DNA from: Promethearchaeota archaeon | GTDB lineage: Archaea; Asgardarchaeota; Lokiarchaeia; Sigyniarchaeales; SOKP01 | Reading direction: 5' to 3' | NCBI GenBank assembly: GCA_029838195.1 | Contig: JALGVJ010000029.1 | Location: 1 to 49,024, forward strand | DNA length: 49,024 nt | In this document: in pieces, positions 25,890-30,355 of the stretch | How the letters are laid out: every line of letters starts with the position of its first letter | Numbering within the stretch: the first letter of the stretch is position 1 | Notes under the pieces: model-generated | The model's input: only the letters and a program-made list of their open reading frames with translations | The model's database searches: none | What the model was told of the DNA's origin: nothing | Position numbers and translations under genes: made by a program

Positions 25890-26408
25890 TTCTCACACCC
25901 GACAATTATTCTTTTTTCACTTAAGTTTATTCTTCGGTATCAGCTTACTTGAAATTTTTTTCGACAATCTTGCTTGAATATTTAATATCGTTTTCAATAC
26001 TTTTATTTATCTTTTATTTAATATAAGCTCTCCCCTTTTGAGCAAAAACTTTTTAAGGAATGTTTATCACCCAATAAAAAAATTGAATAATGAAGGAAAA
26101 AAAATTAAAAATCAATCCATCCTTCCCTTCCTATATTGTAATGCTAATATTTTGTAATTTTTCCCTTCCAATCCCGTGAAAACTCCTTTTACCTCGTTTC
26201 CAACCATGATCTAAAAATTAACTTCCGTGCCAGTCCTTTCACGATATTATTAATTGATCGCTCGAAATTAAAGTAGAAATCATGACATGATTTTTCTAGT
26301 TTTCCCCTCAACTTCCGCACGAAGTAAAATTTATATTAATCCCAATTTTTTTATAATTATAATTTAAACGTAATTGTTTCATGCATTTACACGTTTTTTC
26401 TCATCATT

Positions 26409-26538
26409 GGTCGGGTTACCGAGAAAATGGAGATGAGCACTCCATTCGGAAATCTGGTCAATTTGGGTCAAGACCATAGGTGCTGGACTTAAGATCCAGT
26501 GGCAAAGGCCTTCGTGAGTTCAAATCTCACCCCGACCA
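26409..26538 (+). tRNA. tRNA-Leu(TAA) with two D-loop introns (~26424-26452 and 26462-26477)
   Basis: Acceptor GGTCGGG/CCCGACC + A73; D-stem ACCG/AGGT; anticodon arm CTGGA-CTTAAGA-TCCAG (TAA 26490-26492); long variable arm GGC-AAAG-GCC; T-arm GTGAG-TTCAAAT-CTCAC; CCA not encoded; T-tract follows. Confidence 0.93.
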
Positions 26539-26780
26539 CTTTTTATTTTCTTTCCATTCTAGATTTTTTCAATCACGAATCATGGAATTTTCTATAAAGA
26601 AAAAGAGGTGTCTTAAAAAGATATTAAATCAATTCAATCGGGATACATAGGGCGAATTGCTCATGACATAGAGATGCTTGCCATGAATCCTAAGCGTTAA
26701 AGATTTTTATATGAAGGTCTTAGAAATTTAGATTTTTGTGGTAAGAGGAGATTGAAAAAATTATAAATTAAGAAAATACT

Positions 26781-26922: not shown

Positions 26923-27300
26923 ATGCCAGTCGGTATACTTGTTATCAAGTGGGACAATGAGATTGGTCCGATTAATGAAGGGTTTTATCCGGAGAATTTG
27001 AAGATTACGAATAATTTGTTAACGCAAATTTATTCTTCTCATCGTTATCAATCGTTAAAGCCGGGATTTGCCTCCATCTCTCTCAAGAATTATAAAGTGG
27101 TTTCATTTTTCAGCGGTGTTGGAGAAATGACTGTATCGGTGGAGAATTATGTAGTAGCGCTCTTATTGAGGAGGGATGAGAAACCCAGCAAGTATCGGGA
27201 GGTGTTAAAGACGATTGCGGCTGAGATTTTAGACAAGATTCCGGATGGAAAGTTCAAAGCGATTTTACCGGAACTTTATAAGGAACTGACAAAAGTATAA
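26923..27300 (+). CDS. Stand-alone longin/uDENN-like domain protein
   Basis: GILVIKWDNEIGP...YP N-terminal motif, VVSFFSG, VVALLLRRDE and C-terminal helices. Confidence 0.6.
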   Translation: MPVGILVIKWDNEIGPINEGFYPENLKITNNLLTQIYSSHRYQSLKPGFASISLKNYKVVSFFSGVGEMTVSVENYVVALLLRRDEKPSKYREVLKTIAAEILDKIPDGKFKAILPELYKELTKV

Positions 27301-28087: not shown

Positions 28088-28687
28088 TTGAACATGAGTG
28101 GAAATTCGGAAGGAAAAGTTGAAAAGTCTCAAATTGAAGGTATCATTGAAAAAGATAAAGTACTCATTCGCGATAATGAAGGAATTAATGATTTTTATAA
28201 AAATTCATATATTGGAACATTAGAACAGCGCGATAAAGGCGAGCAAGTGTTAATATTAGATCCCATTGAAGTCTTGCTCTTATGTGAGAGAAAAAGAATT
28301 CTTCTCTGGGAAAATAATGATAAAAAGAAAAAGCAACACGATTTTGAAAGCTTGTTATCTTACTTTACTCAATTTGATGAAAAATTATGGTATAAATATA
28401 TCATTTATTCAGATTTAAGAAAAAGGGGCTACATTGTCCGATTAGGCTATGGCGATGGCATCGATTTCATGGTATACAAGCGAGGAGCGGATTTTGAAAA
28501 CGAATCTGCTAAATATTTAATATATACAGTATTCGAAGGTTCACCGATCGAATTAAGAGAGTTAGATATCATTTCTAGAATTGCAATGAGCTCCCGAAAA
28601 GACCTCATTATTGCTACAGTGGATAGATTAAGCAAGGCTGTCTATTATAGCATTAAAAAATTTGAAATTTTAAATAAATCATCTTGA
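28088..28687 (+). CDS. endA: tRNA-intron endonuclease subunit (probably the structural beta type)
   Basis: LDPIEVLLL, YIIYSDLRKRGYIV, DFMVYKRG, SSRK; expected catalytic His absent (NESAKYL). Confidence 0.85.
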   Translation: MNMSGNSEGKVEKSQIEGIIEKDKVLIRDNEGINDFYKNSYIGTLEQRDKGEQVLILDPIEVLLLCERKRILLWENNDKKKKQHDFESLLSYFTQFDEKLWYKYIIYSDLRKRGYIVRLGYGDGIDFMVYKRGADFENESAKYLIYTVFEGSPIELRELDIISRIAMSSRKDLIIATVDRLSKAVYYSIKKFEILNKSS

Positions 28688-28699
28688 CTTGATTAATTA

Positions 28700-30355
28700 A
28701 TGGCAAAATTTTTACCTGACACCTCTGTAATCTTTAATGGACTCATTCTTGATTTGATTGAAGATGGAGAATTAGGAATCTCCCCAGAAATTCTAATTTC
28801 AAAGGTGGTAGTGGCAGAAATCGAATATCGCACGAATATCAACAAGGAATTGGGTTATTATGGATTACACGTGTTAAAAGAATTAAGAAAATGGGCCCAA
28901 GAGGGAAAAATTTCATTATCCATCGTAGGAACACGCCCTTCGAGAGAAGAAATTAAAATGGCACCCGGGGGTGAACTGGATTCCCTCATTAGAAAATCAG
29001 CCTTGGAGAATCAAGCTACATTAATCACTTCAGATAGAATTCAAGGAGATTTAGGAATATTTGAAGGTCTAGAGGTTATCTCTGTAAAAGAACGGGCAAG
29101 CGTAAGGCCAAAATCACCTATAAAGCTTAAAATTCTTGATTATTTTGATGAGAATGTAATGAGCATCCATATAAAAAAAGATTTACCCCCCTACGCCAAG
29201 AAAGGACAACCGGGAAATTGGTATTTAGTGAAAATTCGAGATGAAATCATTAATTCCAAGCAAATTGAAGAGATGGCGTTTGAAATCATTGAATTCGTGC
29301 GAGAAGATAATCAATCATTTATCGAAATAGAAAAAATGGGTGCTGTGGTGGCCCAATTACGAGAGTTTAGAATCGTGATCACCCGTCCTCCCTTTTCAAA
29401 TAACGTGGAAATCACTGCTGTAAGACCCTTAGTTGTCAAATCCATTTCCGATTATAATTTAGATACAAAATTAATTAATCGATTAGAAAAAGCTGAAGGA
29501 ATCTTAATATGTGGCCCTCCTGGTGCTGGAAAGTCTACCTTTGCTGCTGCCCTTGCTAATTTTTATTTGAAGAAAGAAAAAGTAGTAAAGACCCTTGAAA
29601 GCGTGAGAGACCTTCAAGTCAAGCCGGAAATTACTCAATACACCAAGCTGGAAGGAAGTTTAGAAAACTCCGCAGATATCTTATTACTCGTGAGACCCGA
29701 TTATACCATTTTCGATGAAGTACGCGTCTTTGAAGATTTTAAAATTTTCGCTGATTTTCGATTATCTGGAGTCGGCATGGTCGGTGTCGTTCATAGTTCT
29801 TCCGCCATTGATGCCGTGCAACGATTTATTGGCAGAATTGAATTGGGAATGCTCCCGTCCATAATAGATACCATCATTTTCATTGAAGGTGGAGATGTAT
29901 CAACTGTCTTAGTATTAAATATGACTGTAAAAGTGCCGCATGGAATTCGAGATAAAGATCTCGCTCGCCCCGTCATAGAAGTTCGCGATTATAAAACGGG
30001 ACGACTTCAGTTTGAAATTTATTCCTTTGGACAAGACGTGGTTATCACGCCCATTAAATCTAAAAAAGGAAAAACTAAAGGAGGTACTCTTCTCGAGTTC
30101 TCTGAAATTTATGGAACTCGTTTTGAAAGCCCAAGAATCGATTTGGGTTTTGAAGTGAAGAAGGACAAGATAATCATTTTTACTGATCCTCGCTACGCCG
30201 GTCAGAATATAAATATTTATGCTAATGGTAAACATCTCTTCAGCGGCTCGTTATCGAGAAATGGAGATATCACGTTGTCCCTCTCCCATAAAGAAGGGCA
30301 AAAAATTCTAAGACATTTTCAAAAAAATAAAGATATTTATGCCCAAATCAAGTAA
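28700..30355 (+). CDS. PIN-domain ATPase (PINA / PINc-VapC ATPase)
   Basis: PDTSVI, LITSD, ITRPPFS...EITAVRP, GPPGAGKST, LLVRPDYTIFDEVR, VKVPHG...DLARPVIEV. Confidence 0.92.
   Translation: MAKFLPDTSVIFNGLILDLIEDGELGISPEILISKVVVAEIEYRTNINKELGYYGLHVLKELRKWAQEGKISLSIVGTRPSREEIKMAPGGELDSLIRKSALENQATLITSDRIQGDLGIFEGLEVISVKERASVRPKSPIKLKILDYFDENVMSIHIKKDLPPYAKKGQPGNWYLVKIRDEIINSKQIEEMAFEIIEFVREDNQSFIEIEKMGAVVAQLREFRIVITRPPFSNNVEITAVRPLVVKSISDYNLDTKLINRLEKAEGILICGPPGAGKSTFAAALANFYLKKEKVVKTLESVRDLQVKPEITQYTKLEGSLENSADILLLVRPDYTIFDEVRVFEDFKIFADFRLSGVGMVGVVHSSSAIDAVQRFIGRIELGMLPSIIDTIIFIEGGDVSTVLVLNMTVKVPHGIRDKDLARPVIEVRDYKTGRLQFEIYSFGQDVVITPIKSKKGKTKGGTLLEFSEIYGTRFESPRIDLGFEVKKDKIIIFTDPRYAGQNINIYANGKHLFSGSLSRNGDITLSLSHKEGQKILRHFQKNKDIYAQIK

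Follow-up and report, generated by a model that had tools for sequence, protein, structure and literature searches.

A tRNA-Leu(UAA) gene with two predicted D-loop introns and a 9-nt exon in an Asgard archaeon

Interrupted tRNA genes in described systems

In the published record, the most extreme examples of multi-intron tRNA genes with introns away from position 37/38 now come from Asgard archaea. According to a 2024 report (PMC11291895), introns occur in 92-95% of the tRNA genes of three complete Asgard genomes, and more than half carry several. In a preprint by Goswami et al. (October 2026, 10.64898/2026.10.13.758758), the tRNA genes of the focal Asgard families have 2.2 intervening sequences each and at most five in a single gene; tRNAscan-SE is reported to overlook 30% of these sequences, half of the overlooked ones being in the D arm, and the splicing motif is enriched at their boundaries. 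An initial sequence-only reading of the DNA studied here had placed multi-intron non-canonical tRNAs mainly in Thermoproteales, a view that these two reports have made outdated.

The gene described here lies in a window of 49,024 nucleotides, by which we mean the whole stretch of DNA that was analysed. It shares with the published Asgard genes an Asgard host, several introns per gene away from position 37/38, D-arm inserts missed by annotation, boundaries enriched for bulge-helix-bulge motifs and a pair of EndA paralogs. The published genes give no sign that introns were copied from one gene to another, and intron 1 of the present gene is likewise single-copy. The focal families, in contrast, are different ones (Freyr-, Jordi- and Atabeyarchaeaceae; PMC11291895 and 10.64898/2026.10.13.758758), and the preprint, which nowhere mentions 'Hermod', does not name the present lineage in its main text. 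Two introns in one D loop, a 9-nt exon and a near-universal 21/22 intron with covariation are not singled out in the main texts as available, and the supplementary tables may list them. The genome fits the heavily interrupted kind: of its 25 Rfam tRNA matches above the cut-off, only about 10 have a compact length, and both ARAGORN and Rfam miss the 5' part of the gene. The tRNA-Leu(UAA) gene is a well-supported yet typical case of the heavily interrupted Asgard tRNA genes already published.

Thermoproteales yielded the first catalogue of non-canonical multi-intron tRNAs, in which no gene exceeds three introns (PMC4033280 and PMC4090602, reviewing Sugahara et al. 2007, 2008). Their genes resemble the present one in having non-canonical sites (including 20/21 and 22/23), relaxed hBH/HBh' motifs, in which one flanking helix is weak or missing, and an (alpha-beta)2 endonuclease. 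They belong to a different phylum, and their related introns recur across tRNAs, suggesting transposition, whereas intron 1 here has no other copy and up to four introns are found in relatives of this gene. Cyanidioschyzon merolae and nucleomorphs also have genes with two or three introns, placed in the D and T arms (PMC3728597; Kawach 2005, cited in PMC4090602). Splicing in those systems was confirmed by RT-PCR (PMC3728597; PMC4090602); the hosts and endonucleases are eukaryotic, intron length goes down to 3 nt, and no direct relationship is implied.

Anatomy of the gene and its spliced product

The class II tRNA-Leu(UAA) gene occupies positions 26409-26538 of the forward strand as three exons of 15, 9 and 61 nt with two inserts between them (Table 1). 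It is intergenic, with no overlapping open reading frame of at least 60 aa. The unspliced gene has 65 nt from U9 to position 26, where about 20 are expected; with the inserts set aside, all features of a class II tRNA-Leu are present, namely the 7-bp acceptor stem, the long variable arm, A73, a Leu anticodon, and a 3-bp D stem closing an 11-nt loop with G18 G19. The gene encodes no CCA. The upstream TATA-like stretch may serve as its promoter, and the T-run behind it is a putative archaeal oligo-T terminator.

Table 1. Positions of the tRNA-Leu(UAA) gene, its parts and neighbouring elements in the window
Feature	Position	Strand	Remark
Candidate archaeal promoter, AT-rich and TATA-like	26347..26368	+	41-62 nt upstream of mature 5' end
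Exon 1, 15 nt: acceptor 5' strand, U8 U9, D-stem 5' strand, A14 G15	26409..26423	+	pairs with 26531-37
Intron 1, 29 nt, position 15/16	26424..26452	+	relaxed bulge-helix-bulge, 6-7 bp hairpin
Exon 2, 9 nt, TCTGGTCAA: D-loop positions 16-21 including G18 G19	26453..26461	+	matches D loop of uninterrupted Leu paralogs and orthologs
Intron 2, 16 nt, position 21/22	26462..26477	+	strict bulge-helix-bulge
Exon 3, 61 nt: D-stem 3' strand, anticodon arm (UAA), long variable arm, T arm, acceptor 3' strand, discriminator A	26478..26538	+	
Acceptor stem	GGTCGGG 26409-15 / CCCGACC 26531-37	+	perfect 7 bp
Anticodon arm	26483-99, TAA at 26490-92	+	read from sequence
Long variable arm	26500-13	+	read from sequence
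T arm	26514-30	+	read from sequence
Discriminator	A26538	+	read from sequence
T-run TTTTTATTTT	26540..26549	+	directly 3' of tRNA-Leu(UAA) gene
EndA paralog, 199 aa, beta-like	28088..28687	+	Pfam tRNA_int_endo and tRNA_int_endo_N

To collect orthologs, 60 related genomes were searched at the DNA level and the hits aligned in spliced form, which returned 27 loci from 13 genera of the same family. Their orthology is backed by synteny with a neighbouring 125-aa ORF (26923-27300, forward strand), which has no Pfam match and, in about 20 relatives, is found at 76-94% identity in synteny with tRNA-Leu(UAA). The boundaries of both inserts were set by comparison, as described next, and the splicing motif played no part in fixing them.

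Removal of both inserts leaves the D arm ACCGAGTCTGGTCAAAGGTG, which has the same length and nearly the same sequence as the D arms of the uninterrupted paralogs in this genome, GCCGAGTCTGGCCAAAGGCG in Leu(UAG) and GCCGAGTTTGGCCAAAGGCG in Leu(CAG); the D loops of Leu(GAG) and Leu(CAA) are also equal in length to the spliced one. In the predicted spliced RNA, exon 2 stands between CCGAG and AGGUG as UCUGGUCAA. ARAGORN called a full-length tRNA-Leu(taa) starting at 26409 only when both inserts were deleted, and it called a standard tRNA-Leu(taa) for 27 of the 28 spliced orthologs, this gene counted. The claims that this is tRNA-Leu(TAA), that it carries introns at these two positions around a 9-nt exon, and that their removal restores a standard D loop are thereby borne out by paralogs, orthologs and gene calls on the spliced sequence. 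ARAGORN had also been proposed as a means of detecting the gene, and here the outcome was divided: on the native sequence it returned only a truncated call (26456-26539), and its intron mode, which admits anticodon-loop introns only, did not list the gene. The Rfam tRNA model scored the locus at 25.5 bits, below its 29-bit threshold, and covered only 26466-26538. Two further Leu genes of this genome look interrupted as well and received no full-gene call from ARAGORN: tRNA-Leu(CAA) (C69:690-851, reverse strand) has about three apparent inserts, two near the anticodon arm and one in the T loop, and tRNA-Leu(GAG) (C69:55666-55747, reverse strand) has a T-loop insert.

We read the locus as the organism's single functional tRNA-Leu(UAA) gene, with two independent D-loop introns, each of which would be excised by EndA at its own motif before RtcB joins the ends, and we put the probability of this reading at about 0.88.

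The two introns in relatives

Intron 2 has the make-up of an archaeal bulge-helix-bulge tRNA intron spliced by EndA. Its central helix joins exon G56-C59 (G18 G19 U20 C20a of the tRNA) to G72-C75 of the intron (GACC) by four of four Watson-Crick pairs. This helix is flanked by two 3-nt bulges, A60 A61/T62 and A76 T77/A78 (AA/U and AU/A in the RNA), then by an inner stem of 3 bp (T63 T64 G65 with C69 A70 A71) and an outer helix of 2 bp. The predicted cut after the second base of each bulge falls exactly on the boundaries derived by comparison. Every element of the clean motif described from the sequence alone (GGTC/GACC helix, AAT and ATA bulges, TTG/CAA stem) was found again, and shuffles of this gene placed a strict motif at the exact boundary pair in 0.3% of cases by chance.

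A survey of Asgard orthologs, which the sequence-only reading had proposed, found the 21/22 intron in 28 of 28 family members (this gene counted) and in other families, while the 15/16 intron was patchy. In the family the 21/22 intron measures 16 to 66 nt, the shortest version, of 16 nt, being that of this gene and a congener, and its 3' core GGGTCAAGAC(C/T) is invariant. Longer versions use an adjacent GAYY word in place of GACC as the partner of the exon, which preserves the 4-bp helix and the 3-nt bulges. Beyond the family, other families of the order have the intron (two closed genomes of about 4.4 and 6.04 Mb being among the carriers), as do one further family of the class and, elsewhere in the phylum, families f13, f14 and f20; the tRNA-Leu(UAA) gene of family f19 is uninterrupted. 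All four central pairs form at the exact boundary in this gene, in almost every one of the 28 family orthologs and in families f2, f7, f13, f14 and f20. Compensatory changes were also observed: position 20 changes from U-A to A-U in f14 and f20, and position 20a from C-G to U-A in L067, so that GGUC/GACC becomes GGAC/GUCC or GGAC/GUUU in the two families and GGUU/AACU in L067. This covariation between exon and intron is direct comparative evidence that the central helix is under selection.

Among 241 million metagenome records, the intron-bearing 21/22 junction was present in 102 contig stretches and the spliced junction in none; its absence from metagenome DNA means that an intron-free gene is unsampled there and has no bearing on RNA. 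Five relatives (L006, L008, L015, L016 and L020) carry 21/22 introns of 62-66 nt with internal D-loop-like words, TGGTC and GGCCAAAGGTCGC. They look as if a base intron of 34 nt had taken up about 30 nt more at its 5' edge, pointing to a nested intron or an internal duplication. It is possible, if on balance doubtful, that the 21/22 intron of tRNA-Leu(UAA) is one ancient intron that predates the split of several Asgard classes, was never lost and is kept by an acquired maturation role, with an obligatory cut-ligate-cut order wherever a second intron joined it. This idea builds on the occurrence of the intron in every family ortholog, on 102 of 102 metagenome junctions and on a conserved GGGTCA(A)GAC core; the acquired role may be, for example, intron-dependent D-loop modification or folding control.

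Intron 1 is patchily distributed. It was found in seven family orthologs from three genera and not in the other 20, in which exon 1 runs straight into exon 2 in the spliced alignment. It was also found in 8 of 61 distinct full-length metagenome genes and in three genomes of the distant family f20, likewise with a 9-nt exon (CCAGGACAA). The 3' end is shared as CGGRAA (CGGAAA or GGGAA in the f20 genomes), and the inner stems vary yet stay complementary (AUGGAG/CUCCAU, AAGGC/GCCUU, AGGUU/AACCU, GGAAGC/GCUUCC and others). Conserved position and covarying stems in relatives support its interpretation as a tRNA-type intron. The shape of the motif carries less weight: intron 1 fits the relaxed class only, and shuffles of this gene give such shapes by chance at 6.7% of boundary pairs, so that intron 1 is supported by its relatives and not by its shape. 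The possibility that it is a repeated element was rejected, as BLAST found no second copy in the genome.

The exact ends of intron 1 could be moved by 1 nt on each side. The relaxed motif proposed for it from the sequence alone was seen in part: the helices CCGA/TCGG and ATGGAG/CTCCAT are both present in the minimum-energy fold, but at the 29-nt boundaries that restore the D loop only three of four central pairs form (C11 C12 G13 with CGG of the intron, the fourth being an A-A mismatch), and the 5' bulge has 4 nt when a 7-bp inner stem is used. If intron 1 were instead cut as 26425-26451 (27 nt), the gene and its introns would be the same and the D loop would keep two extra A residues, AGAATCTGG. 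In that register CCGA/UCGG makes four perfect central pairs; it is the choice of RNAfold here and in orthologs of genera g1 and g4, and in L008, L010 and L029 it gives a textbook motif with two 3-nt bulges. Against it, orthologs without intron 1 all have exactly three bases from G15 to G18, a spacing reproduced only by the 29-nt boundaries, and the A14-U pair cannot be made in L005, L027 and family f20, where a G15/Y16 motif is better. In addition, only the 29-nt register, read from the sequence, retains G15 for the Levitt pair with C48, and the product of the 27-nt removal is rejected by ARAGORN. The 29-nt boundaries are therefore probably the right ones, and we consider the shorter excision unlikely.

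Other relatives show further arrangements. L029 (relative G004), L025 and L026 carry tRNA-Leu(UAA) orthologs with three or four inserts (15/16, 21/22, variable arm, T loop) that give a standard tRNA once the inserts are removed. L042 (relative G059), from another family of the class, apparently has two D-loop inserts, the first at about 14/15 (GCCAA/.../AGTCGGTCAA), which would occupy an upstream site unlike that of intron 1.

Need for the gene and unspliced alternatives

TTA is the commonest Leu codon in this genome, which has a GC content of 33.5%; it makes up 46% of Leu codons and 47 of every 1000 codons, in line with the heavy use noted earlier from the window. A second intact tRNA-Leu(TAA), which the sequence-only reading had named, together with a missing spliced product, as grounds for regarding the locus as a pseudogene, was looked for with an nhmmer profile built from the spliced orthologs; the search returned five Leu isoacceptor genes (UAA, UAG, CAG, GAG and CAA), with UAA only once. 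A regex scan for UAA anticodon arms had given 688 candidates, mostly spurious at this GC content, and the profile search was used in its place. The second 'Leu(taa)' called by ARAGORN, on C91, is a 75-nt class I tRNA and was read as Val(CAC) with a canonical 37/38 intron.

A decaying pseudogene, with the inserts as debris and TTA read by another tRNA, would agree with the lack of a full gene call by standard tRNA finders and with the state of the assembly, a draft with an estimated contamination of 7.9%, which leaves room for a second UAA copy on unassembled DNA. Yet every stem is intact once the inserts are removed, the commonest Leu codon has no other UAA isoacceptor among the five genes, and the interrupted architecture is conserved with covariation over many genera and metagenomes. 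We regard decay as very improbable.

If the inserts were instead retained as part of a larger D loop in the mature tRNA, that loop would have 56 nt, with G18 G19 and C11-G13 buried in other helices; established tRNA structure makes an elbow impossible in this state. The exact 3-nt bulges and the covariation between exon and intron at the boundary are, moreover, what selection for cleavage predicts. Retention can appeal to the wording of the published Asgard census, which speaks of 'intervening sequences' because removal is undemonstrated (bioRxiv 10.64898/2026.10.13.758758), and we give it hardly any credence. Least credible of all is a single 54-nt intron (26424-26477) with TCTGGTCAA as part of it: deleting the whole stretch still leaves ARAGORN with a 77-nt 'tRNA-Leu' call, but G18 G19 and most of the D loop are missing from that product, exon 1 runs directly into these nine bases in the 20 orthologs that have no intron 1, and no bulge-helix-bulge forms at the boundary pair 26423/26478.

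Splicing machinery, order of removal and implications

The genome encodes three EndA homologs and an RtcB ligase. The alpha protein (202 aa, contig C1; L031:1459-2067, reverse strand) aligns best to the catalytic chain of the A. pernix enzyme, 3p1z_B, and a stretch of this alignment is what we take to be the Crenarchaea-specific loop. The beta-like paralog of the window begins 1.55 kb downstream of the tRNA-Leu(UAA) gene; it has Ser at what is presumably the catalytic His position in the alignment with M. kandleri EndA, and it looks like a non-catalytic structural beta subunit. Asgard (alpha-beta)2 EndA with this loop has been linked to cleavage of relaxed motifs (PMC5829648). The A. pernix (alpha-beta)2 enzyme resembles the present pair in its loop, in its similarity to the host alpha and in the presence of a second, non-catalytic paralog (PMC3241643; PMC5829648); it cleaves non-canonical introns, and a difference is that the host has a third, fragmentary copy. 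The host thus encodes an EndA predicted to be capable of acting on relaxed motifs, together with RtcB.

That third copy, a 106-aa ORF (C53:22042-22209, reverse strand; L033:1492-1812), closely copies part of the beta-like EndA protein in the window and could be a fragmentary duplicate or, given the estimated contamination, co-binned strain sequence. Directly downstream of the paralog in the window, a 551-aa protein (28700-30355, forward strand) combines an N-terminal PIN domain with a P-loop ATPase region behind it, the latter giving only weak matches, to T2SSE and STAND NTPase families. A functional link between the EndA-beta gene and the adjacent tRNA gene was considered and set aside: no tRNA-Leu lies near EndA-beta in the two closest homologous loci fetched (L034 and L035), and the adjacency was treated as coincidence.

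The sequence-only reading had held that the precursor must refold between splicing events, and folding did not bear this out. The motifs of intron 1 and intron 2 use different bases, and together with all cloverleaf helices they form a fold of -43 to -44 kcal/mol, compared with -28.2 without the motifs and -48.9 for the unconstrained minimum, in which the intron 2 motif is absent. Since both motifs fit one fold, refolding is not required and folding alone imposes no splicing order.

In the mechanism we propose, transcription would yield a precursor in which leader and trailer flank about 130 nt, with two independent tRNA-type introns in its D loop. Each intron and its adjacent exon bases would form a bulge-helix-bulge, intron 2 through GACC paired with exon G18 G19 U20 C20a, and intron 1 through CGG paired with D-stem C11 C12 G13 together with a hairpin of its own. 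A heterotetrameric EndA, with alpha from contig C1 and the beta-like subunit from the window, would cut after the second base of each bulge, cleavage at these exact bonds being a prediction from the motifs. Ligation by RtcB would then give an 85-nt class II tRNA, whose D arm could form only after both removals; because intron 1 holds C11-G13, the D stem (A10 C11 C12 with G23 G24 U25) would become available only on its release. The introns would be removed one after the other, with a cut and a ligation each time. Sequential removal is expected because cutting all four bonds would leave the 9-nt exon held by 4 bp to the excised intron 2, and because the strict and relaxed motifs stand 3 nt apart, which is probably too close for two enzymes at once.

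The finding leaves existing knowledge of heavily interrupted tRNA genes unchanged. For annotation, it means that the sole tRNA for the commonest Leu codon is invisible to or truncated by ARAGORN and Rfam, and the tRNA set of such a genome would look incomplete. That two closed genomes from this order carry the 21/22 intron suggests that cultured relatives could serve as material, and the locus offers a test of how the endonuclease and ligase treat neighbouring introns without losing a tiny exon between them. For evolution, one intron fixed over many Asgard families with covariation and another that is patchy, side by side in one D loop, provide a concrete locus for the origin and persistence of tRNA introns.
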